Notes: generated from the letters alone by a model not told the origin. 64,000 nucleotides of DNA from Candidatus Spyradocola sp. (GCA_050942925.1 JBMNOF010000001.1:69712-133711); one strand, 5' to 3'. Counted from the first letter of the stretch, positions 12,130-46,722 are shown. Numbers and translations: made by a program.

Positions 12130-12131
12130 GC

Positions 12132-31121: not shown

Positions 31122-31226
31122 GTGGTTCGCCTCCTTCCGTATAGGAAAAAAGGCACGGCAAAAAGTCGTGCGGCTTTCTGTCGTGCCCAACTCTTGGAAC
31201 GAAATTGAGGAAAACTGAACAGCTAC

Positions 31227-31574
31227 CTACGGCGTAGGCGGCGTGACGGTAATATAGCACCACCACCAGATATCCTCTCCACAGGCCGTGTGGAGAACAT
31301 AACAGGGGTGCCTATGACTGTAACGCCAAATTCTTTCACAATCGTAACAGTAGATTCCAGCGAAACTGTCGTACTTTCGGATTGTACAGGTCCCTCCGCT
31401 GTATTCGTGCGTGGCTTCTTCCACAACAACGCTGTCTCCAAGGCAAACCTCATAGGCATAACTCGACCCACAGTAATGACAGGAAATCAGATTGTTTTCT
31501 GCTGCGGACGCCGCTGGAACAAACACTACCGTCAGAAGAAGCGTCCAGAGAATGAACCAGTAGAATTTTCTCAC
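31227..31574 (-). CDS. Small secreted cysteine-rich protein (hypothetical)
   Basis: 115 aa. Signal peptide ..LLLTVVFVPAASA/AENN. Nine Cys including CHYC and CYDC pairs, and a W-rich C-terminus. Sits in a locally low-GC segment with its own strong promoter. Confidence 0.5.
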   Translation of the reverse strand: MRKFYWFILWTLLLTVVFVPAASAAENNLISCHYCGSSYAYEVCLGDSVVVEEATHEYSGGTCTIRKYDSFAGIYCYDCERIWRYSHRHPCYVLHTACGEDIWWWCYITVTPPTP

Positions 31575-31711
31575 GAAATCCCTCCGTTCTGTTCACGTCG
31601 GTCGATTGGGTGAGCAACTTCTCTATCTCCTTGCGTCGATCGTGCAAGCCTTTTGTTTCACGGTCTGTTCTTCTGTCTTGGCGCACCAATATACTCTTCC
31701 CGGGTGTCTTA

Positions 31712-31740
31712 AGTATACGCTTCTCCCTCTGTTTTGTCAA
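31712..31740 (-). promoter_or_regulatory. Sigma-A-type promoter for the Cys-rich protein gene
   Basis: Minus strand: TTGACA (31740-31735), 17 nt, TATACT (31717-31712). Confidence 0.65.
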
Positions 31741-31783
31741 TAGAAAAGTTACATTTCATTGGCGCTTCATGCGACACAGTCCT

Positions 31784-32530
31784 TCAGAGCAGGGGGCGCA
31801 GGGCCTCGGCCAGGAGCGCGGCGAGGATCTCGTTGCCCTCGTCGGTCGGGTGCAGGCCGTCATAGGTCAGGGCGCGGGCCTCGGGCGGATAGGGGTAGGG
31901 GTCCTTTTCCGGGTCAAAGGGCAGCCCGGCATAGTCGGGATAGGGCAGGTCGCGCACGCCGTCCGCCGTGCGCACGCGCTTGAAGCGCACGGCGTTTTCC
32001 GGGGTGATGCCGCTGCGGCCGTGCAGGTCGAGCGTCGGGACGCCCTCGGCGCGGCAGGCGCCGCAGATGCCGCGGGCGATGCCGGCCAGCGTCTGCCCGT
32101 GCTCGGGCGCGTAACTGCCCGGCGCGTTGTTGTAGGGATCAAAGAGGTAGACGAAGTCGGAGCGCTCCACGGGGTTGCAGACGAGAACGCGCGCCGCGGG
32201 CGCGAGGGCGTGGATGCGGCGGAGCAGGTTGCCGAGGTTCCCCAGGATCGTGCCGGGCTCTCCCGCGCAAAAGGCGGCGCGGTCGCCCAGGGGAATGCCC
32301 TGATGCCAATCATTCGTGCCGAGAAGGATCGTGTACACGTCCGCGGGGGTGAGCGGCGCGGTCAGCCAGTCGCGGGTGGTGGAGCCGTTGATGCCGAGGT
32401 TCACGAGGCGGAGCGGCGGGAGCTTGTCTAGCGTGCGGCTGAGGTAGCCGCGCGCGACGATGTTTCCCGTCTCGTCCAGGTGGTCGTTGAGGTATGTAAA
32501 CGAATCGCCGATGGCGCACCATGTCTGCAT
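31784..32530 (-). CDS. SGNH/GDSL-family hydrolase (esterase/lipase-like)
   Basis: Block I ..WCAIGDSFT.., block II ..NLGINGST.., block III ..LLGTNDW.., block V ..DGLHPTDEG... GGAAGGAGG RBS 8 nt before ATG 32530. No signal peptide seen. Confidence 0.8.
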   Translation of the reverse strand: MQTWCAIGDSFTYLNDHLDETGNIVARGYLSRTLDKLPPLRLVNLGINGSTTRDWLTAPLTPADVYTILLGTNDWHQGIPLGDRAAFCAGEPGTILGNLGNLLRRIHALAPAARVLVCNPVERSDFVYLFDPYNNAPGSYAPEHGQTLAGIARGICGACRAEGVPTLDLHGRSGITPENAVRFKRVRTADGVRDLPYPDYAGLPFDPEKDPYPYPPEARALTYDGLHPTDEGNEILAALLAEALRPLL

Positions 32531-32551
32531 GGAGCGCACCTCCTTCCGAAA

Positions 32552-33661
32552 TCATGGGGCGGCGGCCAAGGCCGTCAGGTTTTTGCACTGGGCATAGATC
32601 TCCGGAAAATGCTCGACGGGCACGGGGACGCCCCACTCGCTCGCGCCGGTCTCGACGGTAAAGGCCGGGATGCCGAGGGTTTCGACGCAGTAGTCCTTGT
32701 AGCCGCCAAAGCTGGTGACCACCAGGTCGTCCTCGAGCGTCAAGCCCGCGTATCCGGTCAGCTTCAAAAAGCGCTGGGCCAGGCGCGCGTCGCGCTTGAG
32801 CGCCTCTCCCTCCTGGAAAAAATACCAATAGAGAATTTCTCCGCGGGAATGGTAGCTGAGGGTGAGAGTCGGGGCATACGCCTCCGTCAGGGCGAGCAGC
32901 GCCTGCGTCTCCGGCTCGCTTTCCGGGGCGGGGCCGGGATAGTGGGCATAGGCCGGGGCCTCCACGCCCTCGATCACGCGCTGGTCCTCCCAATGGGCGT
33001 CAAAATTGCGGTTGAGGTCCACGCCGCGGCCGTTGGCCTTCCAGAGCCGGTGAGAGCGCCCGCTCTGCACGATCAGGCGCTCGACCAGGGCGCGGTCTGC
33101 CGGGTTCTCGATCCAGGCGGCGCCCTCCTGGGCGATGCGCACGCCGTCCGGGTTGGTCATGGGCACAAAGAGGAAGCTCGCCCGCTCGAGCAGCGGGTCG
33201 TACATGTCCTCTCCCAGGTAGTCCTCGATCTGCGCCAAGAGGATCTGCACGTTGATCCACTCCCGCCCGTGCATGCCCGCCTGCACGAGCACGCGCGTGG
33301 ACGCCTCGGGGTTCCCGATCTCCATGGCGTACAGGGGCTGGCCCAGGGCGGAGGAATCGTAGGTGAACAGGCGCGCCTCCTCCGGATGCCGGGCCTGGAG
33401 CGCGGAGAGCTCCGCCTCCATCCTCGCGGGGCTGTAGGTCTGCGCGTCGCGGGACACGATGGGGTCGCTGCGGTTTGCTGGTGTCTGCACGGGAATTTCC
33501 TCCTTGTCCTGCGTCGGGGCCGCAGAGGCGGCGGTCCCGGAGGCGGCCGGCGCATCGGCAGGCGCTGCCGGTGGGGCGGCCGCTGCGCACAGCGCGATGA
33601 GCGCGCCGACGAGCGCGGCGCACAGCGCCCGGCAGAGGGTCTCCCAGAGCTCCTTATGCAA
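32552..33661 (-). CDS. Secreted M14-family zinc carboxypeptidase, gamma-D-glutamyl-meso-DAP peptidase-like
   Basis: N-terminal hydrophobic signal (..LCAALVGALIALCAAAA). M14 motifs ..QAGMHGREW.., ..NPDGV.., ..WKANGRGVDLNRNF.. and ..LSYHSRGE... TTG start at 33661 with a GGGGGA RBS inside the end of the upstream gene (8-nt overlap). Confidence 0.75.
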   Translation of the reverse strand: MHKELWETLCRALCAALVGALIALCAAAAPPAAPADAPAASGTAASAAPTQDKEEIPVQTPANRSDPIVSRDAQTYSPARMEAELSALQARHPEEARLFTYDSSALGQPLYAMEIGNPEASTRVLVQAGMHGREWINVQILLAQIEDYLGEDMYDPLLERASFLFVPMTNPDGVRIAQEGAAWIENPADRALVERLIVQSGRSHRLWKANGRGVDLNRNFDAHWEDQRVIEGVEAPAYAHYPGPAPESEPETQALLALTEAYAPTLTLSYHSRGEILYWYFFQEGEALKRDARLAQRFLKLTGYAGLTLEDDLVVTSFGGYKDYCVETLGIPAFTVETGASEWGVPVPVEHFPEIYAQCKNLTALAAAP

Positions 33662-36600
33662 GCGTCAGGTCCCCCATCACGATGTTGAGGGTGCCTGCGC
33701 TGCCGCGCGCCTCCTCCAGCACAAGGGTCAGCGACTGCGCGCCGCGCAGGTCGATTTCGATCCCTGAGAAGGACGACGTATAGTCGCCCCAACCGGTCGT
33801 ATAGGCCTCTTTGTCGTCTACAAAGACCGTCAGGCGGAAGCTTCCGGACTCTGCGCCGTCGTTCCAATCCTGGTCCGCCGAAACGGTCAGGCGCAGCGCT
33901 TCATAGGCGCCGCCCAGGTCGTACTGCGCTTGGGCGCTTCCCTGCGCGCCCACCGCCTCGCCAATGGCCGAGGACGGCACAAACCAGCCAATGCCGTCGC
34001 AGGTGCGGACCTGGTCCCCGTCCAGGAGCTGGAAGTCGCCGGAGTGGGTGGGGTTCGTCCAGCGGTGCAGGTAGTAATGCGCGGGTTCCTGGGTCGGGGT
34101 GAGGTCCATGAGCGTCTGGGCCAGCGCCCCCTCGTCCGAGCCCTGCGCCTCGTCCGGGCTGGAGGTCGCCACGGGCTGAACGGGGATGCCGATTTCCTTC
34201 GCCAGGTAGGGCAGCCCCATGGCTGCCGCTGCCCCGAGCAACAGCACCAGGAGTACCACCGCGACGATTTTCGCCGGGCCGAAGCGCCGCTTGCGCCGCC
34301 TGCGCGGGGGCGGCGTCTCCTCCTCCGGTTCGGGCGCGGGCGGGGCTTCCTCCGCCGCGGACGGGCGCTCGGAAAAGAGGTCCTGGCGGTAGGGCTCCAG
34401 CAGCAGGCGGAGAATCGTCAGGTTCACATCCTCGTCCTCCGCCTCCGCCGGCAGATCGCCCATGGGGCCCTGGGCAAACGCGCGCTTTTCCTCCTCGCGG
34501 TTGAGCGCGTTAAAGGCGTCGAGGCGCTCCTTCCAGCCCGGCGCGGCGGCGCGCGCCGGGCGGTCGCTCTTCTGCCGTGAGCCGCGGGCCTCGGCCTGCG
34601 CGGCCCCGCGGAGCAGCGACCGCGCCTCCTCCCACTCCTGGGCAACGGGCAGGCGGTCGGAATCGGGAAGCTCCAGGCGGCGCAGGGCGGTTTCGGCATA
34701 GCGCTTGCGGTCCTGCGGCGCGCAGCGGTCCAAGCCCTGGCACAGCTCCAGAAGCGCGCCGCGCATCGCCTGCACGAGGGCGGCGCGGTAGCGCGCAAGC
34801 GGCTCGGCCTCGCCCGCCGCCTCTTGCGGCAGCTCCGCCCACGCCCCGGCCAGCTCGCGCAGGGCGTCCGGCGAGGCGCCGATCTCGGATAGGGCCTGGG
34901 CTTTTTCCTCCCAATCGGGCGCTTCCTCGGCCTGCGGCGGCGCGGGCTTCTCCTCCGGCAGGACGCGCTCCACGGCCGCACAGAGCGCGTCGTACTCGGC
35001 GCAGGGGGCGTTTTCGTACAGGCTCTGGGCCGGGCCGAGGAACTCCCTTGCAAAGAAGCGCGCCCTCTCGCGCAGGACCTTGGGATTGCGCTCGCTCTTG
35101 GATGACGCGGGGTCGAAATAGGGCAGGAACATCTCCCAGCGGGCGCGCAGTTCTTCCCGCAGCTCCGCGCGGAACGCGGAAAGGTCCGCCTCCTCGCCGG
35201 GGGTCTTTTCGGGGAGCTTGCGCAGCGCGTCGATGGCAAAGCGCATGGCCTTGACCGGGTCGCGGCGCAGCTTTTCCCGCTGTGCGCGCAGGGCGGCGAT
35301 ATCGGCGCCGCCCGCGGCCGGTGCGGCCTGCAAAAGGCGATCCGCCGCCGCGCAGACGGCCGCGTACTCGGGACAGGGCGCTGCCGCGTAGAGGTCCTGC
35401 GCCGGGAGCAGGAGCTCCTTTTTCAGCGCGGACGCCTGCTTCTGCCGGTCCTTCCGGCTCGTTCCCTCGTCCTGCAGGCGGGCAAGCTCTCTCTGCCAGC
35501 CCGCGCGCAGGGCCTCCCGCAGCTCCGCGCGGAATTGCGCGAGCTGGGGATCGTCCTGGGGCGTCTCCGGGGGGAGGCTGTGCAACGTATCCACCGCCAG
35601 GTGCAGCGCGACGGGGCTGTCGTGCTCCCTCGAGTCCCAGCGGGCGCGCAGCGCGGTCCAGCCCTCCCCCTCCGGGTTCGGGCCCTCGAGCACGCGCAGG
35701 ACCTCGCCGCAGACCGCGTCAAACGCGGGCGCGCGCCGGCCCTCGTACAGGGCGGAAGCGGGCTCCAGCACCTCCCAGGCAAAGCGGCGGGCGCGGCGCA
35801 CGGCCGCGGCGTCAGCCGGGTCCTCCATGGCAAAGAGCGCCGTCAGGGCCTTCCACCGCTCGTCCAGCTCCGCAAGCCCTGCCTCGCGCTCCGGCCCCGC
35901 CTCCATGCCGCGCAGCGCCTCCACGCGCGCGCGGATTTCCTGTCCGTCGGGGAGCGCATCCACCGCCACCTTGCGCCGGGTATGCGCTTCGGCGGGCTGG
36001 GTGCGGCCGGGCAGGACAAAGGGCTTCCGGGCGGCAGGCTCCGCTTGCTTGGGCGCGGTCTCCCTGCGGCCGGGCAAAACAAAGGGCTTCCGGGCGCCGG
36101 CCGTGGGCTTCTGCGCCGCCTCCGCCGGACTCTCGGGTCCCGGCTGTGCGGGCTTCGGCTGTGCGGGTTCCGGCTCTGCCGGCTCCGGCTGTGCCGGGCG
36201 CGGTTGTGCGAGTTCCGGCTCTGCCGGCTCCGGCTGTGCCGGCTGCGGCGGGGGCGCCGGCTTGGGCGGCTCGGGCACGGCGAGGAGCGCCTGCCGGAGC
36301 GCAGAGAGGGGGCGGGCTTCACCGGATCGCGCCGGGGGGAGCGTGGGCAGCAGGCTCTGCCGCAGGCTCCAGCGCTCGGCGGGGTCGGTGCAGGCGCGCA
36401 GGCGCGCCAAATCCACGGCATAGCGCCGGAACTCCTCGGGCGGGGCGGCCAGAAGCGCGCGGAGCTTGTCGGCCTCCGCGCCGCCGCCCTCGGGCAGGGA
36501 GGCGCAGAGCTCGCGGTTTTCGTAGACCGCGCTCTTGTCCGCGTCGTTCAGCTCCTGGAAGAACGCGAGCGCGCCGGCGGCGTCGCCCCGGCGGAGGGCG

Positions 36601-37700
36601 TCGGCCAGCACGCGGTCGGGGGGCGATCCGGCCAAGAGCGCGCGGCGATAGAGCTCCTGCCGGAGGGCGCGCGCCTCCTCCCCCTCGCGGCGGGAGGGGC
36701 CTGCAAACAGCAGCGCCCGGTCGACAAAGGCGGCCGGGTCGGGGATGTTTTCCCAATTCTCCAGGACATAGCGCAGGGCTTCGCCGTACTTCTGCGCCTC
36801 TGCGCTGGCGCGATAGGCCTCCAGGTACAGCCCATCCTGTGTGCACAGCCGGATGTAGCGCAGGCGCGCGACCTCGCTGCCGCCCTTTGCGACCGTCTGC
36901 AGCAGGCGGCGCGCAGCGTCGTGGTTGGCGGGCAAGCCCTCGGCACCGGCCTCGTAGAGCCCGGCCAACTGCAGCTCCGCGCGCGGCTCGGCCATGGCCT
37001 GCTGCTTCTCCAGGTCCATTGCGCGGCGGAGCAAGCGCTCGGCGGCGCGGCCGTCGGGCTTTGTGCCCTTGCCCTTTTCGTACATGCGCGCGAGAGTGAG
37101 GCACGCGCTGATCCCCAGCTGCTCGCCCTCGCGGTCCTTCTTGAGCAGCTCGCGGTAGAGGTTGTCCCGCATTTCCGGCTCCACGCCCAAGGTTTCCAGC
37201 CGCTCCGCGGTCTCGTAGAGCATGGCGCTGTCGCCGGAGAGGGCCGCGTACTTTGCCGCCTTTTCGATGTCCACGCCCCCGATTTCGCCGGTCAGGTAGA
37301 GGCGGGCGGCGCGGGCGGCGGCCGCCTTATCGCCGGCGTCCGCGGACTCCGTCAGCAGCTGCAGGCCCCGCGCGGCGCGGTCCTCGCTCTCCAGGTACAG
37401 GCGGGTGAGCTGCGTGCGCGCGGTGGTGCTCCCCAGGGCGAGGGCCTGCTCGTAATAGACCATGGCCTGCTTTTTGTCCTGGGGGATGTCCCCCTCGCCG
37501 TAGAGGTAGGCGCTGCCGAGCCGCTCGCAGGCCTGCAGATGGCGCTTCTTGGCGGCGTTTTTCAGGTGCTCCATCCCCTCCATCGCGCGGCCCCTCTGCC
37601 CGAGCAAACGCTGCCCCAGCAGATACTCGGCCTCCGTATCGCCCTCCAGGGCGCAGAGGCGCAGTTCCTCCAAACTCATGCGGGAATAGGACGAAGGCAT
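33654..37700 (-). CDS. Giant bitopic membrane protein: cytoplasmic Sel1/TPR-like repeats + three internal ~120-aa repeats + TM helix + extracellular beta-sandwich (NPCBM/lectin-like) tail
   Basis: 1348 aa. The N-terminal ~300 aa carry Sel1-like units (..GSAYLYGEGDIPQDKKQAMVYYEQALALG.., ..LARMYEKGKGTKPDGRAAERLLRRA.., ..LAGLYEAGAEGLPANHDAARRLL..). A P/E/A/Q pentapeptide linker and a duplicated ARKPFVLPGR follow. Then three repeats share the ..P(A)xxLYxxAPxxEYDAxCxxVxRxL....FRAELRExLRAxW.. signature. RRRRKRRF precedes the TM helix IVAVVLLVLLLGAAAAMGL (~34200-34275). The C-terminal 178 aa are ..QYDLGGAYEALRLTVSADQDW..FRLTVFVDDKEAY..IEIDLRGAQSLTLVLEE... AAGGAGG RBS 9 nt before ATG 37700. Confidence 0.7.
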   Translation of the reverse strand: MPSSYSRMSLEELRLCALEGDTEAEYLLGQRLLGQRGRAMEGMEHLKNAAKKRHLQACERLGSAYLYGEGDIPQDKKQAMVYYEQALALGSTTARTQLTRLYLESEDRAARGLQLLTESADAGDKAAAARAARLYLTGEIGGVDIEKAAKYAALSGDSAMLYETAERLETLGVEPEMRDNLYRELLKKDREGEQLGISACLTLARMYEKGKGTKPDGRAAERLLRRAMDLEKQQAMAEPRAELQLAGLYEAGAEGLPANHDAARRLLQTVAKGGSEVARLRYIRLCTQDGLYLEAYRASAEAQKYGEALRYVLENWENIPDPAAFVDRALLFAGPSRREGEEARALRQELYRRALLAGSPPDRVLADALRRGDAAGALAFFQELNDADKSAVYENRELCASLPEGGGAEADKLRALLAAPPEEFRRYAVDLARLRACTDPAERWSLRQSLLPTLPPARSGEARPLSALRQALLAVPEPPKPAPPPQPAQPEPAEPELAQPRPAQPEPAEPEPAQPKPAQPGPESPAEAAQKPTAGARKPFVLPGRRETAPKQAEPAARKPFVLPGRTQPAEAHTRRKVAVDALPDGQEIRARVEALRGMEAGPEREAGLAELDERWKALTALFAMEDPADAAAVRRARRFAWEVLEPASALYEGRRAPAFDAVCGEVLRVLEGPNPEGEGWTALRARWDSREHDSPVALHLAVDTLHSLPPETPQDDPQLAQFRAELREALRAGWQRELARLQDEGTSRKDRQKQASALKKELLLPAQDLYAAAPCPEYAAVCAAADRLLQAAPAAGGADIAALRAQREKLRRDPVKAMRFAIDALRKLPEKTPGEEADLSAFRAELREELRARWEMFLPYFDPASSKSERNPKVLRERARFFAREFLGPAQSLYENAPCAEYDALCAAVERVLPEEKPAPPQAEEAPDWEEKAQALSEIGASPDALRELAGAWAELPQEAAGEAEPLARYRAALVQAMRGALLELCQGLDRCAPQDRKRYAETALRRLELPDSDRLPVAQEWEEARSLLRGAAQAEARGSRQKSDRPARAAAPGWKERLDAFNALNREEEKRAFAQGPMGDLPAEAEDEDVNLTILRLLLEPYRQDLFSERPSAAEEAPPAPEPEEETPPPRRRRKRRFGPAKIVAVVLLVLLLGAAAAMGLPYLAKEIGIPVQPVATSSPDEAQGSDEGALAQTLMDLTPTQEPAHYYLHRWTNPTHSGDFQLLDGDQVRTCDGIGWFVPSSAIGEAVGAQGSAQAQYDLGGAYEALRLTVSADQDWNDGAESGSFRLTVFVDDKEAYTTGWGDYTSSFSGIEIDLRGAQSLTLVLEEARGSAGTLNIVMGDLTLA
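36141..36245 (-). repeat. 15-bp tandem repeat (x7, imperfect) encoding a PAQPE/PAEPE pentapeptide linker in the giant Sel1 protein
   Basis: Units CGGCTGTGCGGGCTT / CGGCTGTGCGGGTTC / CGGCTCTGCCGGCTC / ... are directly visible. A 31-bp block (36167-36197) recurs exactly at 36212-36242. Confidence 0.85.
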
Positions 37701-37754
37701 AGGCGCGGCCCTCCTTACGGCATAGCGCGGGAAACGGGGTTCTTGGCAACGTTT

Positions 37755-38738
37755 TTAGAGGTTACAGGCGATGAGGCGGCCTTTTCTCTCCACCGTGAGC
37801 AGATGCTTGCTCTCTCTGGCCTCGTTCTGCACGGTCTCCCCGGCTTCGCGGGCGACGGCCAGGCGCTGCAGGACGAAGTGCGGCGCGGCATTTTCGGGGT
37901 CGCTGCGGCGCTCGATTTCGTACCAGTCCGCAAGGGCCGGCGCGTCCAGGCTGATGCGGTAGGGCACGACGAACTTGCCCACCTTCATCACGGACGCAAT
38001 GCCCGGGTTGATGCGGCTATACGCACAGAATTCGGCGTAGTCGGCGTCCTGCAGCTTTCGCTGCGGGCGCACGTAGTGCAGCAGCTCCATGCGGCCGAGC
38101 TCCGCCTGGGGAAAGGCGCGCTGCATGGCGCGGTCCGGGCTCTCCGCGCCGTTGAGCACGCGGTTCATGGCGGCAAGGAGGTCGTCCTCCTCGGACCGGG
38201 GCGCGCCCGCTCGGGGCGCAAAGGCCGCGGCGTTACGCACGGGCGCCGCCCTCTGGGGGGAAGCGGCGTTGGGAATCGAGGGATTGACGGGAGCGGGACG
38301 GTGCGCGCTCTCGGGCGAATAGGCGGGCTGCGGCGGCACGGTGGGCACGACGGCGCTTCTCTTGGGCACCGCTCGCTCCACGGCGGCGAGCGCGGCGTCC
38401 AGCGCATCCACATCGCGCTCCAAGTCGAGGATGCGGCGCTGCATATCCGCACCGGAATCGTCCTTTTTGCGGGAGAGGGCGGCTTCGAGCTCGCGCAGGC
38501 GGCGCTGGAGCTCCGCGTTCTCGCGCGCATGCTCCTGGTCCGCGCGCCGCAGGGCGAGGAACAGCACCACGGCCGCTAGCAGCGCCAGGACCGCGATCAG
38601 CAGCGCGAGGATTCCCAGGGCGGAAGAGGTTGCGGGGGCGGTGGTTGCCGTCTCGCTCTCGCCGGTGGCCAAGGCGGCGGGCACCCACAGCATGGCGCCG
38701 AGGAAGATCCCGCCAAACAGGGTCCGTTTGGTTCTCAT
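37755..38738 (-). CDS. Bitopic membrane protein with cytoplasmic coiled coil, Pro-rich linker and unknown C-terminal domain
   Basis: 327 aa. N-terminal hydrophobic segment (LFGGIFLGAMLWVPAALA), a short S/T-rich stretch, then a TM helix (ALGILALLIAVLALLAAVVLFLAL). Next is a heptad-like ..ENAELQRRLRELEAALSRKKDD..RRILDLERDVDALDAALAAVE.. and a P-rich linker. ATGA overlap with the upstream giant ATPase gene. Confidence 0.6.
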   Translation of the reverse strand: MRTKRTLFGGIFLGAMLWVPAALATGESETATTAPATSSALGILALLIAVLALLAAVVLFLALRRADQEHARENAELQRRLRELEAALSRKKDDSGADMQRRILDLERDVDALDAALAAVERAVPKRSAVVPTVPPQPAYSPESAHRPAPVNPSIPNAASPQRAAPVRNAAAFAPRAGAPRSEEDDLLAAMNRVLNGAESPDRAMQRAFPQAELGRMELLHYVRPQRKLQDADYAEFCAYSRINPGIASVMKVGKFVVPYRISLDAPALADWYEIERRSDPENAAPHFVLQRLAVAREAGETVQNEARESKHLLTVERKGRLIACNL

Positions 38739-41700
38739 GCCCGTCCACCTTCTCTCCAGTACCAGATGGAGAACACGCGCTTGAAGCACTCGGAGAGCGC
38801 GGTCTCGTCCGTGACGCTTGCGTCAAAGGCGTTGAGCTTGCCGATGATGGTCATGGGATCGGTGCAGTTGCCGTTCTCATCCACAAAGGGAGTGAGCCAC
38901 GGCGCGTGGGTGAGGTAGGCGTAGAGGGAAAGGAACTCGAGCACGCGCTCCTGGCGGGTGGGCACGTCCACGGCCTTTGGGGGTGCGGCGGGCGCGGCCG
39001 GGGCTTGGCCCGGGGCGGCCATGGCAAAGGGATTGCTCCGCGCGCCCATGCCGTCGCTGGCCACGCCGAAGGGATTGGCGGCAGAGCGGGCGCCGGGGGC
39101 GTTGACCGCGCCGCGCGCAAGGGAATCCTCGAGCTTGTGCACGCCCATGGCGACCTCGGTCTTGGGGTTCAGGCACATCTGCACGGCGTCCGGCGCGGTG
39201 CGCGTGCCGTAGACCGCGTCAAAGACCTGGCGCACGAGGGTCTGGTCCTCCGGGGTGAGCCACTGGAAGAGCCGGCCGCCGTTTCCGGCGAAGAACAGGC
39301 GCATGAGACCGCCGGCGTTGAGCGCGCGGCCCGTCTCCTGCGAGAAGCGGCGCGCGTTCTCCGCAATGAGGTAGATGACGGAGGCAAAGTTAAAGCGGAT
39401 GGACTCGTAGACGGAGGGGCAAGCGGCGCCGCCCGCGCGGAGCTGGCTCATCATGTCCTCGGAGTGGTTCGCGCACAGCAGGTCCACAATCAGCGAGAAG
39501 GCCTCGGGCATGGCGTCTGCGGAGCCGGATTGGCGCGCGGCCATGTCCCGCAGCATGTGGACGCGGGAAAGGTCCTTCTGCGCGATGGACTTGAGGTTTT
39601 CGTCCTGGGAGGCGACGTGGATGCCGGCCGCCCGCGTCAGGAACTCCTGCTCCGGGCAGGTCTCCTCCCCGTGCTGGCAGCTGAGCAGCAAGCCCTTATA
39701 GATGGGCTCGGTGAGGATATTGCGCCCGCCGATGATGACGGAGAACTCCTTCTGGGGGCGATGGATGTCGTCCAGCCAGAGCGACACATCCGTCGATCCG
39801 CCGCCGACGTCCGCGCAGAGGAAGCCATCGGACAGCGCCGTGACGCCCGCCGCGATGAAGAATGCGCCTGCGGCCTGGCTCTCGGTGAACAGCTCCACGC
39901 TCCCCAGGTCAATGCCGGTCGTCGCGGCGACCCACTTGGCGCTGTCCGCCACGCAGGTGCGGAAGCCCTGCACGTCAAAGGACGCGGTATTGGGGAAGGT
40001 AAAGCGCCAGTTGATCTTGGTGCCCTGGTTGATGGCGGCGATCAGCGCGTACTGCAGCATGACCTGCCGCAAGAACAGGCGCAGGGCGGCCTTGTGCGTG
40101 GGGGTGAGGCCCTCGCCGTCGCCCCACTTCAGGCCCGTCACGATCGCATCCCGCTCCCCAAAGTCGCGCGTAGAGTGGCAGATGTGCCCGTCCAGGAGCA
40201 CCTGCGTGCGCTCGACGTCCTCGGCGCTGAGCTGGCCAAAGGCATTGCCGTCAAAGACCTCCAGGGCTGTGGAGATGCCGCTGGTCTTGAGCTGCGCGTC
40301 GCAGACGAACTCGCGCAGCATATTCGTTTCGGTTTCGGTGTCGCGCAGGATGTGCTTATGCAGGTGCAGCGCGTCCTCGAGCTGGACCGTGCGGTAATTG
40401 CCGTCGATCTCCATGGCGCCGATGGTATTGGAGGTACCAAAGTCCAGGCCGATCTGCACGGTCTTGGGCAGGACCACGGAGGGGCCTTCAAACCGGCCGT
40501 CGTCGGCAAAGAAGCAGCCCACGCCGCACGGGCCGGCTGGCAGCTGCACGCGGAAGGCCACGATCTTGGGGAAGAAGGGCGACTGGACGATCTGCCAGGT
40601 ATTTTCGCTCACGCCGCCGCTTGAGGCGACCTGCTGGCGGATGCGGAAGGCCTTGCGCGTATCGCCCTCGCCCACGGCGACCATTTCCAGGGGGTTCCGG
40701 CCGCCGGAGCCATTGCTCTGCTTGAAGTAGGTGTAGTAGCACTTCCACTTGGGCAAGCGCACGTTGGGCCAAATGACCAAATCGGAAAGGGCCACGTCCT
40801 CCGAGACGATGACGCGCGTTTCCGGCATGGACTTGCGGATGATGTAGCGCCGCGCGGCAAAGCCCGGCGCGTGGGACTCGACCGTGATGTCCACCACGAT
40901 GTCCCCGTAGTCGCGCGCGGTCATGCGCAGGTCCTGAATCGTGAGCTCCCCGCGCAGCTCCAGCTGCATGAGGGCCTCGCCCACCGGCGGCACGGCATGG
41001 TCCACGACCTCACCGCCCTCGTTGTAGATGGCGGAGAAGTTGACGTTCTTCATGATGTCGCGGTTGACGTTGTCCGTGAGGTTGAAATCCGAGAGCACCG
41101 AGCGGCTGAACTTATAGATGCCCAGGGCCACCAGGTCCTCGCTGCGCGCAAAGGGCAGGGCGTTGACGGGGTTGACCACGTGCGCAAACGGCGCGGGCAG
41201 GGGGAACTCCACGGGCGGCGGGGCGTCCAAATCCACGAGCGTATCCGGCAGGGCCAGGTTGCTCACGGCGGGCATGCGCGCGCGCTCGACAAGGTTCAGG
41301 CACTCGACGTCCAGGGTGCTGACCTGGGTGAGGAAGCCAAGCATCTTGTTGATCATGTCGCAGTTATAGGAGAACTGCGGCCGCGCGGGGTCGAGCTGAT
41401 AGTCGACGCTCATGTTGAGGCTCACGAGCGCGGGATCGGACACGCCGCCCAACGGGACCCAGAAGAACTCCGGGGAAAGGTAGGCAATGCTTCGTCCGTT
41501 GTAGAAGAGGTACACGCCCCCGGGGCTCTGGCGGCGGATGTTCTCCGGCAGTCCGGCCACGGCCATGGTCAGGTTCAGCAGCCGCACGCTGCGCCGCGCG
41601 CTCTCCAAGGTATTGGCGGGGTCGCCCATCTGCACGCTGATGCCGAGATCGGCATAGTACGTGCCCAGGAAATAGCCGCGCGTGACCAACAGCCAGAGGT

Positions 41701-42475
41701 TTCGCGCCTCCTCCGAGGCGCGCATGGCGTGCAGGGCGCTCGTCTCCTCGGCGCGCAGGTCGCGCAGGAAGTCCTCCGCCAGGCGCGCGACGAGCTTCTG
41801 TCCAAAGACGGGCGAGTTGGGCGTCTGCGTCATGGTCAGCACGCCGGAGAGGCGGCTGACCAGCTCGTCCCGTTGCAGGACGGGGAGCCGGACGTCGCAG
41901 GGATCGCGGAAGGTGCCGGTGGGGTAGTGGAACCAGGGGATGTTCCGGGCGCCCTTGGCGTCCGCCCGCACGGCCGCGGGAAAGACCAGGAGCTTCCGGG
42001 AGAAGATCAGGCGCGGGGCGCCGTCGAAGTAGCCGACCTGCATGCCGGCCGGGGCAAAATCGCCGTGCGCGGCATCTGCCGGGAGGAAGAAGTCCTCTCC
42101 GGCCGGGGCATAGTCGTGGCCAATGGCGGAAAAGTCCGACCGGGCGCGGCCGGGGCGATCCTCTGCCGTGAGCGCGAGCGTGTTGACCTCAAAGGGGTAT
42201 TCGTCCTGCAGGAGGGCCAAGGCCGTCATGCCGCGCCACTGGCGCACGGCGTCCTCCATGCCCATCTCCAGCGCGGCCTGAAAGGAGAAGTAATTGGAGT
42301 AGATCTCCGGGAAAGAGGAGGAGACCAGCTCGTCGCCCGCCTTCATGCGCTTGGCGATTTTTTCGCACAGGTTAAAGGGCGCATTTCCGTCGGAACCGAC
42401 GCGCTCCCAGCCCTTGCGGCTGAGCGTCGGCAGGGCTTCGCCCGCGTTGAGCTCCACGATCATGGATTCCAGCAT
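38735..42475 (-). CDS. Giant (1246 aa) protein with actin/Hsp70-fold (ASKHA) ATPase core, ~660-aa unknown N-terminal region and NPF-motif/Pro-rich C-terminal tail
   Basis: Phosphate-1 motif VQIGLDFGTSNTIGAM (~40424-40452). Phosphate-2 motif FLCADVGGGSTDVSLW (~39782-39820). Adenosine-type motif LFFAGNGGRLFQWL (~39266-39295). They are in the canonical order and spacing for Hsp70/actin-like ATPases. AAGGGGGAAGAG RBS before ATG 42475. Confidence 0.7.
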   Translation of the reverse strand: MLESMIVELNAGEALPTLSRKGWERVGSDGNAPFNLCEKIAKRMKAGDELVSSSFPEIYSNYFSFQAALEMGMEDAVRQWRGMTALALLQDEYPFEVNTLALTAEDRPGRARSDFSAIGHDYAPAGEDFFLPADAAHGDFAPAGMQVGYFDGAPRLIFSRKLLVFPAAVRADAKGARNIPWFHYPTGTFRDPCDVRLPVLQRDELVSRLSGVLTMTQTPNSPVFGQKLVARLAEDFLRDLRAEETSALHAMRASEEARNLWLLVTRGYFLGTYYADLGISVQMGDPANTLESARRSVRLLNLTMAVAGLPENIRRQSPGGVYLFYNGRSIAYLSPEFFWVPLGGVSDPALVSLNMSVDYQLDPARPQFSYNCDMINKMLGFLTQVSTLDVECLNLVERARMPAVSNLALPDTLVDLDAPPPVEFPLPAPFAHVVNPVNALPFARSEDLVALGIYKFSRSVLSDFNLTDNVNRDIMKNVNFSAIYNEGGEVVDHAVPPVGEALMQLELRGELTIQDLRMTARDYGDIVVDITVESHAPGFAARRYIIRKSMPETRVIVSEDVALSDLVIWPNVRLPKWKCYYTYFKQSNGSGGRNPLEMVAVGEGDTRKAFRIRQQVASSGGVSENTWQIVQSPFFPKIVAFRVQLPAGPCGVGCFFADDGRFEGPSVVLPKTVQIGLDFGTSNTIGAMEIDGNYRTVQLEDALHLHKHILRDTETETNMLREFVCDAQLKTSGISTALEVFDGNAFGQLSAEDVERTQVLLDGHICHSTRDFGERDAIVTGLKWGDGEGLTPTHKAALRLFLRQVMLQYALIAAINQGTKINWRFTFPNTASFDVQGFRTCVADSAKWVAATTGIDLGSVELFTESQAAGAFFIAAGVTALSDGFLCADVGGGSTDVSLWLDDIHRPQKEFSVIIGGRNILTEPIYKGLLLSCQHGEETCPEQEFLTRAAGIHVASQDENLKSIAQKDLSRVHMLRDMAARQSGSADAMPEAFSLIVDLLCANHSEDMMSQLRAGGAACPSVYESIRFNFASVIYLIAENARRFSQETGRALNAGGLMRLFFAGNGGRLFQWLTPEDQTLVRQVFDAVYGTRTAPDAVQMCLNPKTEVAMGVHKLEDSLARGAVNAPGARSAANPFGVASDGMGARSNPFAMAAPGQAPAAPAAPPKAVDVPTRQERVLEFLSLYAYLTHAPWLTPFVDENGNCTDPMTIIGKLNAFDASVTDETALSECFKRVFSIWYWREGGRA

Positions 42476-42491
42476 GTCTCTTCCCCCTTTC

Positions 42492-44129
42492 TCACTGCAC
42501 GCTGCAGGCGTAGAGCAGGCTGGACAGGAACGTCTCAAAGCAGGTTGCCCCGCTGACGCTGTCCGAGGTCTGCGCTACGACGCTTCGGTTGATCGCTTCA
42601 AACGTATACTCGCCGGCAAGGCCGCAGACGAGGGACTTGACGTCCTCCTGGGAGGCGTCGCCGCCCAGGGGCTTCTGCGCGTCATACCGGCCGTCCGGCA
42701 TTTCCATGTAATACTTGTAGAGCAGGGCCAGCAGGGCGCCGTCCACCAACTCGTTGCTGGGCACGTCGATGCGCCAGCCGCCTGCGCCGCCCACGGCATA
42801 GCCCTCCCCGGGATTGGACCGAACGTACGGCGGCGGGAGCGTGACGATCATCTCCGTCAGCCACCGCACGAACTCCGTAAAATACCGGCCCGCCGTGCGG
42901 AAGCGCAGCACGGCCTCCTCGCGCTCCTCGTCTGCGCGGACCTTGCGGAAATAGCGCCGGGTGACGGCATCCTGCGTGCGGAAGAGGCTCTGCTTGCCCG
43001 TCAGGTCCTTGACCATGGGGTAGCCGTAGGACGTGGCCAGGACGTACGCCGCGCGCAGCAGGCGCGCAAACCCGCCGCGCATGCCCATGTCCGGGAAGGA
43101 GTCCCAGGTCAGGAACGTCTTTCCCTCGGCATTGGGCGCGGTGAGGTCCAGGTTAAAGAGGTAGTGCCCGTCCTGCTCCTGGGGAACATAGCCGCCCGGA
43201 TTCGTCGTCAGGAAGTGCGACACCGCCTGCGCGCCGAGCCAATCCACCAGGTGGGCGGCATTGTTCTGCTCCTGCCCGCCGGTGCAATAGTCGTAGACGA
43301 CCTTGTCCTGCGAACCGACCATGTAGATGGCGTTGAAGACCTTGTTCTCCCCATAGCCCACGCCCTCGCGCGCGTAATACTCCAGCGCGGCCTTGGCCTT
43401 GGGCTCAAACTGCGAGGACTCGATCACGCCGTCGCCCTTTGTCGTGGCAAAGTAGGGCAAGAGCAGCATGGCGCCAATGATGGCGCCGCCGCCCACGGAC
43501 CTGCGGGCGTCCGGGTTCGGGTTCTCGTCGGTGAGGTTGCGGATGTAGCGGGCAATGGAGGGGATGGCCGAGGCGCCCGTGCCGCCGAAGATGGAGCCGG
43601 CCAGCAGAATCCTGGGCTGTCCGCCCTTGACCAGCTCCCGCCGGATCTCCTCGATGACCTCGGAAAAACTGTGCTCTGGCGGGAGCGTGGGCAGCTCGGA
43701 GGCAAAGAAGTGCGCGCCCACGTTCGGGTGCCCGTAAAAGCCCTTCTTGTAGCTCATCTCCAGCTCATAGTCCGTGTAGAGGGCGCGGGCGATCTCCCGG
43801 TCGTTGCCCATGCCGGTCGAGCGCAGGATGCCGCCCATGGCCTGCTCCTCCACGGCGGTCAGGCGATAGAGCGCAAAGTCCGCCGAAAAGCCGATGTCCG
43901 TCTCCTCCTCGGCGTCGGCCTGCGCGGAGGAGACGCATGCGCGCATGTCCTGGTAGAGCGTCGTCAGGCTCTCGGCGCGCTTGAGGTTGCCGCCGGTCTG
44001 GTCCAGGTCCACGATCACGGCGTGGATGGCCGCGCCCGGGTGGCGCAGCACGCCGGCCGCGGCCGCGTGCAGGGTGGCCTCCAGCATCTTGGAGCCGGAG
44101 CCGCCCACGAAAAACACATAGCTGCCCAA
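42492..44129 (-). CDS. Tubulin/FtsZ-like GTPase-domain protein (divergent; 'Tubulin_2'-like by inference)
   Basis: 545 aa from a TTG start at 44129, with GAGGAGGAAG 6 nt upstream. T1-like YVFFVGGSGSKMLEA (~44088-44116). T3-like KGFYGHPNVGAHFF (~43717-43745; compare FtsZ GAGANPEVG). T4 signature-like LLAGSIFGGTGASAIPSIARYI (~43569-43600; compare GGGTGSG/GGGTGTG). Confidence 0.65.
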   Translation of the reverse strand: MGSYVFFVGGSGSKMLEATLHAAAAGVLRHPGAAIHAVIVDLDQTGGNLKRAESLTTLYQDMRACVSSAQADAEEETDIGFSADFALYRLTAVEEQAMGGILRSTGMGNDREIARALYTDYELEMSYKKGFYGHPNVGAHFFASELPTLPPEHSFSEVIEEIRRELVKGGQPRILLAGSIFGGTGASAIPSIARYIRNLTDENPNPDARRSVGGGAIIGAMLLLPYFATTKGDGVIESSQFEPKAKAALEYYAREGVGYGENKVFNAIYMVGSQDKVVYDYCTGGQEQNNAAHLVDWLGAQAVSHFLTTNPGGYVPQEQDGHYLFNLDLTAPNAEGKTFLTWDSFPDMGMRGGFARLLRAAYVLATSYGYPMVKDLTGKQSLFRTQDAVTRRYFRKVRADEEREEAVLRFRTAGRYFTEFVRWLTEMIVTLPPPYVRSNPGEGYAVGGAGGWRIDVPSNELVDGALLALLYKYYMEMPDGRYDAQKPLGGDASQEDVKSLVCGLAGEYTFEAINRSVVAQTSDSVSGATCFETFLSSLLYACSVQ

Positions 44130-44145
44130 GGGTTGCTTCCTCCTC

Positions 44146-44667
44146 TCACCACTTCTTAAACAGGGAACTGCGCATGCCCACCGGCGAGAAGAGCCACAGC
44201 CCCAGGATGAACGGCACATTGTACAGGAAGAGTCCGTGGTACGCCAGAATGTCGTACGCATCCAGCACCATGGAGGTGGCAAAGCCAAAGACGCCGCTGA
44301 GGATGGAAACGAGCAGCGTCATGAGCACATGCACCGCGATAAACACCGCAAAGAGGATGTTTTCCAGGCTTCTGCGGTCGGGATTGCCCGCCTTGCGGAA
44401 GATCACATACCAAATTGCCATCAGCAGCACCGAGAGGCCCGCCGTCGTGCCATAGGCGCCGGCCATGACTGAAAACCAGACCTGGCGCACAGCCTCGTCC
44501 GTCAGGTTCTCCACGCCCGCGATGCCCACGCTCTGCAAAAACTCATACGCAAAGGGCGTGCTCGCCATGTTCCACGACAGGAACGCCAGCAGGAGCCCCG
44601 TGAGCACCGCGTACATCACCACCAATATGGCGATGTGCTTGCCATTGTTGTCCATGCTTCTAGCCAA
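44146..44667 (-). CDS. Small polytopic membrane protein (4-5 TM), hypothetical
   Basis: 173 aa with hydrophobic helices throughout. Probable TTG start at 44667 preceded by GAAGGGAAGGA. Sandwiched between the vWA-like and tubulin-like genes. Confidence 0.55.
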   Translation of the reverse strand: MARSMDNNGKHIAILVVMYAVLTGLLLAFLSWNMASTPFAYEFLQSVGIAGVENLTDEAVRQVWFSVMAGAYGTTAGLSVLLMAIWYVIFRKAGNPDRRSLENILFAVFIAVHVLMTLLVSILSGVFGFATSMVLDAYDILAYHGLFLYNVPFILGLWLFSPVGMRSSLFKKW

Positions 44668-44694
44668 CTCTTCATCCTTCCCTTCGTGTGCGGT

Positions 44695-46545
44695 TTATTC
44701 ACTGCGGAAATACCCCTGCTCGTCCACATACAGGTCGACGTAAAAACTCACCAGGTCGTGCGTGGGCGACAGGGCGTTCGCGCCCGTGGTCTGCACGGTG
44801 TTGGAGGAGACCACGAGCTGGTTCATGATGCGCTTGAGGTACAGCGTCTTAGAGCCGTCAAAGCTCGCCGGATCGCTCAGCCAGGTCAGCTCGTCCGCCA
44901 CCGAGATGTCCCACTCGTCCACCCACGGCTCCAGGTCCGTGGGGAACAGGTCGGCCGGGCACTGGGCCGAGGCCGTGAGCAGGATGCGGTAGATGCCGAT
45001 GTCCTCCGGCGTCTGCAGGGTCACGCGGAAAGTGACCGGGCAGGTGAGCGCCTCGCCGTCGCGCTGGGCCTCGCCCACGGAGAGGACTTCCACGCCCTTC
45101 ACCAGGGCCGCGGAGGTCTCGTCTGCGACAAAGTCACCGGCATAGCGGCTGGAGCCGACGGTCGCGGTGATGGGCAGGCCCGTTTCCTCCGCGGTCTGCG
45201 CGCCGGCGTCGCTGCCGGTGCGCCGGCCGGAGGCAACCTCCTGCAGGACCGTGCGCTCGACCTGCGCCTCCGCCGTGAAGGTAAAGGTCGAGAAGTCCAC
45301 CTCCTTGTCCGTCAAAACGCGGACCGGGACGGTGAAGTCAAAGTACACGCTCTCCGGCTCCTGGGCGGGCGCCGGGGTCTGCCCGCGTGCCGTGGCCTCT
45401 GCACGCGGAATCGTGTAGCGCAGGTCCGCGACCTGGCCGCTGGCAAGCGATGTTTCGTCCTTCTGCGTCTGGCCCGTGAGCGTGCCGTCCGTGGCAAAAC
45501 CGGTGATGTCCGCCGCGTCTGCGGCCTCGCCCCAGTTCCCCGTCTTCATCAGCTGCACTTCACAGGTATAGAACTCGTTGTCCGCGATCTCGGCATCGAA
45601 CTTCTCCTTCAGCGCCTGCGCAAAGGCATTGACCTCGTTCTCGTCGCCGATGAGCAGCAGGTAGAAGGGGTGGGACTTGTACTCGACGAAGTTCCGGTTC
45701 TCGTCCACGCCGTAGTTGATGGTCTGGTCGCTCTCCCCGATGTCATAGATGGGGCCAGCAAACTCGCTCTGGATGCCGAGCACGGCGACGGTCTTTCCCT
45801 GGGAGAAGAAGCGGTCGGTCATGAGCCGCCCGATGCTCTCCACCATGCCCTTTTCCTCGTAGAGGTCGGTCACGATGACGTTGAGGCTGTCGGGGTTGGC
45901 CATGGTCAGCGCGGTGCGCAGGGGCGGGAGGGTCTGGCTGTCCCAGTTGACGGCCGCAATGGAGCGGACCTTGTCCGTTACGGCTTGCAGCACGTCGCCC
46001 TCGCCGGCGCTGTAGTCGGCAAAGTAGGTGGTCTTGCTGTAGAAGTCCGCCTGCTCGTAGGCGCGGACGGTATCGCCTGCGGAGATCGGCGCAAAGGCGT
46101 ACAGGGAGCGCGTCAGCTCCTCCAGCGTCTGGCCCGTTTCGCCCAGGTAGGCGTCCATGCCCTCGATGTCCGCGAAATCCTCAGGCAGCAGGGAGACCTC
46201 AAAGCGATAATACGAAACGTCCGCCTGAATCCACATGTTGTAGGCGGTCTCCTCGATGCGGGGCAGCGCCTTGCGGTAGGCGGTGGCCAGGTCCCCGGCC
46301 ACGAACCCCGCCATGGAGGGCGTGCCATCCATCCAAATATCGACCTGCACATCGGCGTTGGGGTCCAGTGTGACGGAGGTTCCGTCCTCCCCGCCGGTTG
46401 CGGTTGGCTGTTCATAGGCGGGAACGCCCGCATAATCCCGAATGTGCACTTGGCTGGCCGTCGTGCTCGTCCTGCCTCTGCAGCCGGTGAGCAACAAAAC
46501 CAGAGCCAGCGCAGCGCACCATGCGCTTCTCTTCCTCATGTACAT
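44695..46545 (-). CDS. Lipoprotein with N-terminal vWA-like domain (MIDAS-like DxTxS) and beta-rich C-terminal region
   Basis: Lipobox LLLTGC. VQVDIWMDGTPSMAGF (~46311-46344) resembles vWA beta1 plus a MIDAS DxS/TxS. ..SLNVIVTDLYEE.. (~45856-45882) resembles the vWA beta4 'TD' motif. Alternating beta/alpha pattern in between. Start is ATG 46545 or 46539. Confidence 0.55.
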   Translation of the reverse strand: MYMRKRSAWCAALALVLLLTGCRGRTSTTASQVHIRDYAGVPAYEQPTATGGEDGTSVTLDPNADVQVDIWMDGTPSMAGFVAGDLATAYRKALPRIEETAYNMWIQADVSYYRFEVSLLPEDFADIEGMDAYLGETGQTLEELTRSLYAFAPISAGDTVRAYEQADFYSKTTYFADYSAGEGDVLQAVTDKVRSIAAVNWDSQTLPPLRTALTMANPDSLNVIVTDLYEEKGMVESIGRLMTDRFFSQGKTVAVLGIQSEFAGPIYDIGESDQTINYGVDENRNFVEYKSHPFYLLLIGDENEVNAFAQALKEKFDAEIADNEFYTCEVQLMKTGNWGEAADAADITGFATDGTLTGQTQKDETSLASGQVADLRYTIPRAEATARGQTPAPAQEPESVYFDFTVPVRVLTDKEVDFSTFTFTAEAQVERTVLQEVASGRRTGSDAGAQTAEETGLPITATVGSSRYAGDFVADETSAALVKGVEVLSVGEAQRDGEALTCPVTFRVTLQTPEDIGIYRILLTASAQCPADLFPTDLEPWVDEWDISVADELTWLSDPASFDGSKTLYLKRIMNQLVVSSNTVQTTGANALSPTHDLVSFYVDLYVDEQGYFRSE

Positions 46546-46570
46546 ACATCCTCCAACGTTTCTTTCCCTT

Positions 46571-46706: not shown

Positions 46707-46722
46707 CTTGTCGTTCTTGTTC

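Follow-up and report, generated by a model that had tools for sequence, protein, structure and literature searches.

What is a protein that joins a long, repeat-rich and presumably cytoplasmic part to a lectin-type domain beyond the membrane doing in an operon for tubulin-like and actin/Hsp70-like nucleoside triphosphatases (NTPases)? This question is raised by a locus of Candidatus Spyradocola sp. (GCA_050942925.1, JBMNOF010000001.1:69712-133711); the whole stretch of 64,000 nucleotides (nt) analyzed here is referred to as the window. The genus belongs to the Christensenellaceae, Clostridia (order Christensenellales), a clade of interest to gut microbiome research. The protein, hereafter the scaffold, is encoded by an open reading frame (ORF) of 1348 amino acids (aa) on the minus strand (33654..37700). 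Our analysis points, with a confidence somewhat short of even, to a bitopic protein with its N-terminus inside and its C-terminus outside (N-in/C-out) that would act as a lineage-specific envelope anchor or tether of the operon's tubulin-like machinery. Both recognizable domains of the scaffold are known families, and NPCBM already stands in its database name. What is new is the architecture, with Sel1 repeats on the cytoplasmic side, a variable array of motif-bearing repeats, a transmembrane (TM) helix and a membrane-anchored CBM51 subtype, along with a reiterated docking-type motif and an operon role in which the scaffold seems to stand in for a MotA-like/OmpA pair. The entire operon is of greater interest than the scaffold gene alone.

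Architecture of the scaffold protein

From the N- to the C-terminus, the scaffold consists of Sel1 repeats, a conserved region without a family match, a Pro-rich linker, internal repeats, a juxtamembrane segment, a basic cluster, a TM helix, a disordered linker and a CBM51/NPCBM domain. The features are as follows, in this order:

33654..37700, minus: whole scaffold ORF, 1348 aa; 100% identical to NCBI 'MAG: NPCBM/NEW2 domain-containing protein [Candidatus Spyradocola sp.]' (MAG, metagenome-assembled genome)
36846..37679, minus: Sel1 repeats, aa ~8-285, with some six units discernible by eye (Pfam, PDB profile, conservation)
36261..36845, minus: conserved region without a family match, aa 286-480, ending in the first LPxxxxGExxxLxxLRxxL motif (aa 451)
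35976..36260, minus: linker rich in Pro (31%), Ala, Glu and Gln, aa 481-575, in which the PAQPE-type array and both ARKPFVLPGR copies are found (sequence, ortholog alignment)
36140..36249, no strand: tandem DNA repeat, period 15 (7.3 copies) or 45 (2.4 copies) (Tandem Repeats Finder)
35574..35963, minus: internal repeat A, aa 580-709 (pairwise comparison, shuffles)
35214..35573, minus: internal repeat B, aa 710-829, opening with the LPPETPQDDPQLAQFRAEL motif (pairwise comparison, shuffles)
34830..35213, minus: internal repeat C, aa 830-957, opening with the LPEKTPGEEADLSAFRAEL motif (pairwise comparison, shuffles)
34371..34829, minus: degenerate fourth unit, then a juxtamembrane segment that is conserved, aa 958-1110 (the motif recurs at aa 957 and 1083)
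34281..34370, minus: acidic/Pro low-complexity tract, then basic cluster RRRRKRRF, aa 1111-1140 (sequence)
34206..34280, minus: single TM helix, aa ~1141-1165 (Kyte-Doolittle scan, only segment above 1.6)
34119..34205, minus: predicted disordered outside linker, aa 1166-1194, predicted local distance difference test (pLDDT) score below 50 (AlphaFold model)
33657..34118, minus: divergent NPCBM/CBM51 beta-sandwich ectodomain, aa 1195-1348 (Pfam, PDB profile, AlphaFold/Foldseek)

The reading frame itself is well delimited, with an AAGGAGG ribosome-binding site 8 nt 5' of its ATG and an N-terminus, MPSSY, that is identical in all orthologs. Because the local G+C content around the gene is 71-73%, many long overlapping ORFs are found on other frames. 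They were treated as spurious, including two plus-strand ORFs over the scaffold gene, 35535-38579 and 35282-37099, which are the Arg/Gly/Ala-rich antisense translations expected at ~71-73% G+C.

The two ends of the protein could be assigned to families by several methods. At the N-terminus, the Pfam family Sel1 (PF08238) was matched with 46.9 bits (cut-off 30.7), and two stretches reached significance individually. A profile of the N-terminal 480 aa from seven orthologs retrieved EsiB (4bwr) from the PDB with an expectation value (E) of 7.6e-13, and further matches of the same type, to SEL1L, MotX and HcpB/C, were obtained over multiple stretches (E 7.6e-13 to 1e-4). At the C-terminus, the tail after the TM helix comprises 183-185 aa and contains an NPCBM/NEW2 match (PF08305) at 36.6 bits, against a cut-off of 23.9, over aa 1250-1334. 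Our profile of nine orthologous tails identified CBM51 chains in the PDB (7js4, E 1.3e-6; 2vmh/2vmg, E 3e-5). The AlphaFold2 model built on the same nine-tail alignment reached a mean pLDDT of 85.8, with values above 90 in the beta-sandwich and below 50 in the first ~29 residues. The eight best Foldseek matches of this model in the PDB were all CBM51 modules (ZmpB, GH95CBM51, Sp3GH98; probability 1.0, E 8e-7 to 2e-5), and its target-normalized template modelling score (TM-score) against the GH95CBM51 entries 2vmg, 2vmh and 2vmi was 0.74-0.76. As modeled, the tail is a CBM51 fold of a divergent, membrane-anchored subtype. Family profile scans of the whole scaffold (1348 aa) revealed no catalytic domain.

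The divergence of the tail is visible in its signature motifs. In a MAFFT alignment that included canonical sequences and PDB fragments, the window tail and its closest tail relatives shared GIG[WM][FY]V, an insertion of ~10 residues after GIG, and a C-terminal GTLN[IV]V[ML]GD, where canonical NPCBM domains have G-x-H-A-x-S and D-x-D-W at the corresponding places. Cysteines occur in the ectodomain at (L/V)-C-D-G, G-W-C-D and G-C-x-x-L, with all three sites present in the orthologs P0005-P0008 and two in P0009 and P0011; V/F, G and A take their places in the window protein and in P0002/P0003.

The orientation of the protein in the membrane was read from its charge distribution. The scaffold has no N-terminal signal peptide, and the basic cluster RRRRKRRF (aa 1133) precedes the sole TM helix. 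Because the 30 residues on the N-terminal side of this helix hold eight Lys and Arg and the 30 on its C-terminal side hold one, the positive-inside rule alone would place the first 1140 aa in the cytoplasm and the CBM51 tail outside. By this rule, the scaffold fits a bitopic layout with one TM helix, a large cytoplasmic part and a wall-facing ectodomain. Since the outside tether is only ~30 disordered residues long, the ectodomain probably lies near the membrane, in the zone of the wall and not beyond it. The acidic and Pro-rich tract that precedes the basic cluster and the helix (34281-34370) is the second low-complexity tract of the protein and is of the PEDD type in P0002. A preliminary description of this DNA, drawn from the sequence alone, had proposed a 1348-aa ORF at these positions with Sel1/TPR-like units in the N-terminal ~300 aa, a poly-Arg segment before a single TM helix, and an extracellular, NPCBM-like tail of 178 aa. 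The ORF (here placed on the minus strand), the Sel1 assignment, the basic cluster with its helix and the nature of the C-terminal beta domain were all confirmed by the above evidence, and the outside location of the tail agrees with the charge bias; only the tail length had to be corrected.

Between these ends lies a middle part that differs among orthologs in repeat number and length. Internal repeats B and C are 44% identical over 86 aa (E 5.5e-19), and repeat A resembles both C (E 2.9e-10) and B (E 4.9e-6), with Smith-Waterman scores among the three of 9-20 standard deviations over 300 shuffles. The fourth unit is too degenerate to be significant alone (z 2-2.7 versus shuffles). The motif LP-x4-5-GE-x3-L-x2-[FYL]R-x2-L occurs five times in the window scaffold (aa 451, 709, 829, 957 and 1083) and 3-10 times per ortholog. 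Upstream of the repeats, the period-15 DNA repeat encodes six P[AE][QE]P[EKG] pentapeptides (aa 487-521), and ARKPFVLPGR is present at aa 536 and again at aa 557. In two pairs of orthologs that are 98% identical, the proteins differ only by indels, one of 16 aa in the Pro-rich linker and one of 3 aa in the acidic tract, the latter between P0002 and P0003/P0004. These results substantiate the earlier proposals of three ~120-aa internal repeats (now ~125 aa), a 15-bp DNA repeat behind a PAQPE array and a duplicated ARKPFVLPGR, and they show that the FRAELRE motif once ascribed to the repeats is part of the recurring LP-x4-5-GE motif. The comparison of PAQPE-region length that had been suggested likewise revealed a length polymorphism of the slippage type, in the form of the 16-aa indel. 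Of the three outcomes named beforehand as contradicting that description, namely a cytoplasmic tail, a tail unlike carbohydrate-binding modules and unsupported repeats, none was observed.

Conservation against eight orthologs follows this division of the protein. The Sel1 region (aa 1-290) is the most conserved part, at 69-91% identity, followed along the chain by aa 291-480 (49-86%), the almost unalignable Pro-rich linker (aa 481-575; 3-43%, with up to 94% gaps), the repeats region (aa 576-960; 18-62%), the juxtamembrane segment W-x-RL-x-AFN...LTILR-x-LL-x-PY (aa 1051-1110; 43-88%) and the CBM51 region (aa 1196-1348; 35-76%). Conserved ends and a conserved juxtamembrane segment around a variable middle are the pattern expected of a spacer with variable valency.

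The full-length scaffold family is real but very narrow. A word-indexed homolog search returned 280 matches, nearly all of them full-length proteins of 1150-1520 aa with both Sel1 and NPCBM; with the tail as the only query, it gave just two matches, the long proteins evidently having escaped the word index. A HMMER scan of 1.84 billion representatives clustered at 50% identity, with scaffold aa 149-1348 as the query, yielded five full-length clusters and otherwise fragments only. Our pattern scan of 185,579 species genomes located four loci, all in MAGs of Christensenellales or uncultured Clostridia. Across loci, the scaffold is only 37-48% identical, whereas its operon partners retain 69-76%. 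A further ~50 clusters match the TM helix and tail only; they are proteins of 200-700 aa with a C-terminal NPCBM, nearly all with a preceding TM helix. Judged by their shared motifs, the bitopic proteins with GIG[WM][FY]V...GTLN[IV]V[ML]GD look like an unrecognized membrane-anchored NPCBM subfamily. A cytoplasmic module, a TM helix and this NPCBM subtype thus form a recurring design, and the presence of the subtype in ~50 unrelated clusters means that the CBM51 fold serves outside enzymes that degrade glycans as well. The cytoplasmic parts in this group (P0171-P0204) are varied and mostly unannotated; P0171 carries DUF4145, and P0181 has a protein kinase domain match below the Pfam cut-off (25.9 versus 31.7 bits).

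The operon and its distant relatives

The scaffold is gene 6 of a tightly packed seven-gene operon on the minus strand (32552-46545), the other members of which are:

44695..46545, minus: gene 1, ~617-aa lipoprotein with an LLLTGC lipobox and a D-G-T-P-S motif (sequence)
44146..44667, minus: gene 2, 173-aa polytopic membrane protein, read as having four TM helices (of its three hydrophobic segments above threshold, the last could hold two helices)
42492..44129, minus: gene 3, 545-aa probable tubulin/FtsZ-superfamily protein with GGTGAS (Pfam, model, hhalign)
38735..42475, minus: gene 4, 1246-aa cytoplasmic protein with the actin/Hsp70-type motifs DFGTSNT, DVGGGSTD and GNGG (sequence)
37755..38738, minus: gene 5, ~327-aa membrane protein in which a signal-like segment and a TM helix are joined by a probable coiled coil (sub-threshold coiled-coil family matches only)
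32552..33661, minus: gene 7, secreted M14 zinc carboxypeptidase, weakly like MpaA, a murein tripeptide amidase

The orthologous loci L001-L004 have the same seven genes in the same order, one of them with a scaffold that is just 37% identical, and in the Christensenellales the operon has DUF1846, GDSL lipase and AMP-binding genes as conserved syntenic neighbors on the chromosome. In the window and in both L001 and L002, an 8-nt overlap between the end of the scaffold gene and the start of the M14 gene suggests that the two are translationally coupled. The TTG start of the M14 gene lies within CTTGCATAA (33654-33661).

None of the five genes upstream of the scaffold has a Pfam or NCBIfam match above threshold. 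The 545-aa protein matches the Pfam families Tubulin_2 (PF13809; E 0.0043, 16.8 bits versus a cut-off of 27) and Tubulin (E 0.016), and its distant homologs P0161-P0164 match PF13809 at E 4e-4 to 4e-3 and PF00091 at E 1.4e-5. Its AlphaFold model (pLDDT 70; predicted template modelling score, pTM, 0.83) has FtsZ as the best Foldseek match in the PDB, with a probability of 1.0 but an E of 4e-3 and a TM-score of 0.33-0.47. In addition, hhalign with an E. coli FtsZ sequence places GGTGAS on the T4 loop of FtsZ at E 0.07. PDB profile searches with the 545-aa protein (4 and 18 sequences) and with the large ATPase gave nothing significant, the best match being CetZ (3zid) at E 0.15. Taken together, five weak but agreeing lines make the 545-aa protein a probable member of the tubulin superfamily. 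The large ATPase, 69-76% conserved across loci, shows a weak Ppx-GppA match at its second motif, in the window protein as well as in a distant homolog.

Remote homologs of the tubulin-like protein, at 27-31% identity, are encoded in two further operons:

2715-12356: distant operon L009 (73% G+C)
8871-17933: distant operon L011 (30% G+C)

In L009, counterparts were detected for the tubulin-like protein (at E 1e-29), the large ATPase (at E 2e-18) and the lipoprotein (at E 8e-7) of the window operon, and a small polytopic protein and a TM protein are common to both by position. In L011, the tubulin-like protein has a counterpart at E 6e-32 and the ATPase a weak one. The layout of both distant operons retains a core of lipoprotein, small TM protein, tubulin-like protein, large ATPase and TM protein. 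Neither operon contains a homolog of the scaffold. In both, the scaffold slot is occupied by a MotA/ExbB-like membrane protein with a long tail (PF01618, E 0.02 in L009 and 0.002 in L011, both sub-threshold and in the same region), and the next gene encodes an OmpA/MotB-type peptidoglycan binder (PF00691 at E 1.4e-12 in L009; weak MotB_plug and OmpA matches in L011). The presence of such a pair at this place implies that the slot appears to be reserved for an envelope-anchoring module. The layout of L009 and L011 also recalls ZorAB; our literature search found no description of a defense operon with tubulin-like, MotA and OmpA components.

Some observations on individual genes and on the flanks complete this picture. 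The lipoprotein motif D-G-T-P-S, seen by eye, has a D-A-T-P-S counterpart in the lipoprotein of L009. In gene 5, only ~15 residues part the signal-like segment from a second hydrophobic helix; cleavage of the former would leave hardly any ectodomain, and the C-terminal part, including the probable coiled coil, would lie in the cytoplasm. The C-terminal end of this protein resembles that of a 279-aa protein of L009. L011 adds a trypsin-like peptidase, and L009 adjoins a phage-type integrase. Predicted promoters and terminators were no more numerous across 31000-48500 than in shuffled sequence and were not used for the operon limits. A perfect 8-bp palindromic hairpin, AGAACCGG TTTTTT CCGGTTCT, at 46685-46706 lies between the DUF1846 gene (46723-48360) and operon gene 1 and may be a terminator that parts two transcription units. 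On the other side, 27302-29833 on the minus strand encodes an 843-aa protein in which a xylose-isomerase-like TIM barrel (AP_endonuc_2) is fused to an adenylating enzyme of the AMP-binding type, and a gene of the same domains and the same length sits 3' of the operon in L001.

Possible roles of the scaffold

If the scaffold is an envelope anchor for the tubulin-like machinery, its parts can be given the following functions. The ectodomain, held on a tether too short to pass the wall, would bind a glycan of the cell's own envelope or another ligand and so fix the scaffold, and the coupled M14 peptidase would act on wall peptides at the anchor site. On the cytoplasmic side, the Sel1 region and the reiterated motifs may serve as multivalent docking sites that hold the tubulin-like and the actin/Hsp70-like NTPases at a set distance from the membrane, with the Pro-rich linker and the variable repeats setting reach and valency. 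An anchor for the cytoplasmic GTPase/ATPase was one of two options in the preliminary description, and it gains support from the operon context, even though the 'GTPase' can be assigned to the tubulin/FtsZ group only weakly.

Several points weigh against this anchoring role. The equivalence of operon slots is an argument by analogy, and the tubulin assignment of gene 3 rests on weak, though agreeing, lines (Pfam E 0.004, Foldseek E 4e-3, hhalign E 0.07). In addition, the canonical histidine of G-x-H-A-x-S and the D-x-D-W motif are replaced in the subfamily of the window tail, so that its ligand need not be a carbohydrate. Finally, the fast evolution of the scaffold could also point to an arms race or a sensory role.

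A sensory role would make the scaffold an outside-in receptor, in which the CBM51-like ectodomain senses a host or dietary glycan or a freed wall fragment and ligand-driven clustering alters the recruitment or release of the NTPases. The host is a gut organism, and CBM51 ligands are abundant in that habitat; moreover, the ~50 clusters of tail relatives, including P0181 with its sub-threshold kinase, have the receptor-typical layout of cytoplasmic part, TM helix and NPCBM. However, no signaling or enzymatic domain is recognizable in the 1140-aa cytoplasmic part, the operon encodes no regulator, and the distant operons hold a peptidoglycan anchor, not a sensor, in the scaffold slot, so that we regard a receptor as rather unlikely. 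An arms race, on the other hand, would be expected of a conflict system directed against phages or other invaders, with the NPCBM recognizing an invader molecule and the fast-changing repeats reflecting the race. Predicted conflict systems include fusions of NPCBM domains with kinases and TIR domains, and these NPCBM domains were proposed to be invader sensors (Kaur et al. 2021, PMC8195603). The far faster divergence of the scaffold than of its neighbors, the very narrow and patchy distribution of the family, and the integrase gene beside L009 would all fit such a role. Against it, none of the seven operon proteins matched a PADLOC-DB 2.0 defense model (0 matches at E 0.01), no effector domain (nuclease, TIR, protease or pore) was found, and the Christensenellales operon lies in conserved chromosomal synteny, not on a mobile island. 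The NPCBM domains of the published fusions are also intracellular (PMC8195603), whereas that of the scaffold lies beyond a TM helix. With no PADLOC match and with syntenic flanks, a defense-system origin was ranked low, and we consider it improbable.

The lectin-type fold would also allow for a surface adhesin by which the bacterium holds on to mucin or blood-group glycans of the host, as characterized CBM51 modules of gut and mucosal bacteria bind galactose, N-acetylglucosamine (GlcNAc) and blood-group A/B glycans (PDB titles; PMC9513282). In GH95CBM51, galactose is gripped by a tyrosine platform and two histidines (PMC9513282). The scaffold, however, does not conserve the canonical binding motif, its domain is separated from the membrane by ~30 disordered residues and is unlikely to project beyond the wall, and an adhesin would need neither 1140 cytoplasmic residues nor an operon of cytoplasmic NTPases. 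We therefore judge this role to be very improbable.

Returning to anchoring, the scaffold could, in a version that we hold to be unlikely, be the wall-anchored, stator-like element of an undescribed cytoskeletal machine with a core of tubulin-like GTPase, actin/Hsp70-like ATPase and lipoprotein, the envelope-coupling module of which was swapped in evolution. The core would have been kept from high-GC to low-GC bacteria, with a MotA-like protein and OmpA as the coupling module in L009/L011 and the Sel1-CBM51 scaffold with the M14 peptidase in the Christensenellales, and the reiterated LPxxxxGExxxLxxLRxxL motifs, as docking sites, would set the number of filaments or ATPases per anchor.

More generally, bacterial tubulin-family proteins other than FtsZ are poorly understood, and the FtsZl1-type operons predicted in 2010 are not known to have an assigned function. 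The window locus offers a compact monoderm version, in which one polypeptide joins the cytoplasmic side, with its Sel1 repeats and repeated docking-type motifs, to the wall side, with a lectin-fold domain and a coupled wall peptidase. Such a polypeptide is a handle for pull-downs and localization that could reveal the role of the machine.

Comparison with known systems

The C-terminal 154 aa of the scaffold share their beta-sandwich with CBM51 modules such as those of C. perfringens GH95CBM51 (2VMG) and ZmpB (CBM51-1/-2, 7JS4) and of S. pneumoniae Sp3GH98 (2YGL). However, the tail is only 15-21% identical to the solved modules, and it is joined not to a glycoside hydrolase or peptidase but, via a TM helix, to a huge scaffold that is cytoplasmic by prediction. 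At the other end, the N-terminal ~285 aa fit the consensus of Sel1-like repeat proteins and align with solved members (EsiB 4BWR, SEL1L/Hrd3, MotX, Helicobacter HcpB/C), a group that in general acts as protein-protein adaptors. Bacterial Sel1-like proteins are mostly secreted or periplasmic, whereas the Sel1 part of the scaffold is cytoplasmic by predicted topology, and the scaffold further differs by its fusion to repeats, a TM helix and a lectin-type domain.

In overall layout, the scaffold recalls MapZ/LocZ of streptococci, ZipA of E. coli and HubP/FimV of Vibrio/Pseudomonas, which are bitopic proteins that serve as landmarks or tethers, each with one TM helix; as an envelope anchor, it would also resemble them in function. 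MapZ, HubP and FimV have a wall-binding ectodomain; ZipA has a long P/Q-rich cytoplasmic linker and HubP long acidic repeats; and all of them recruit cytoskeletal or ParA-type NTPases. MapZ, which binds FtsZ, has the N-in/C-out orientation that is predicted for the scaffold. Profile scans detected no sequence relationship between these proteins and the scaffold, whose ectodomain has a CBM51-type lectin fold and not a MapZ, LysM or OmpA-type domain, and whose presumed partner is a divergent tubulin-like protein and not FtsZ.

At the level of the operon, the closest comparison is with the vWA/FtsZl1/OmpA operons predicted by Makarova and Koonin (2010, PMC2875224). The likeness consists of a divergent cytoplasmic protein of the tubulin family, which is a probable assignment in the window operon, a secreted or lipoprotein partner and lineage-specific membrane proteins, and the OmpA peptidoglycan-binding protein of those operons is matched by the distant relatives L009 and L011. 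The tubulin-like protein of the window fits Tubulin_2 only at a sub-threshold E of 0.004, and no vWA domain was detected in the window lipoprotein, which has no Pfam match even at E 10. By these comparisons, the window operon resembles the vWA/FtsZl1/OmpA type, although membership is not established. It differs in its core, which includes a 1246-aa actin/Hsp70-like ATPase of a kind not found among the components in PMC2875224, and in its link to the envelope, where in the window lineage the Sel1-CBM51 protein and the M14 peptidase replace the OmpA component.

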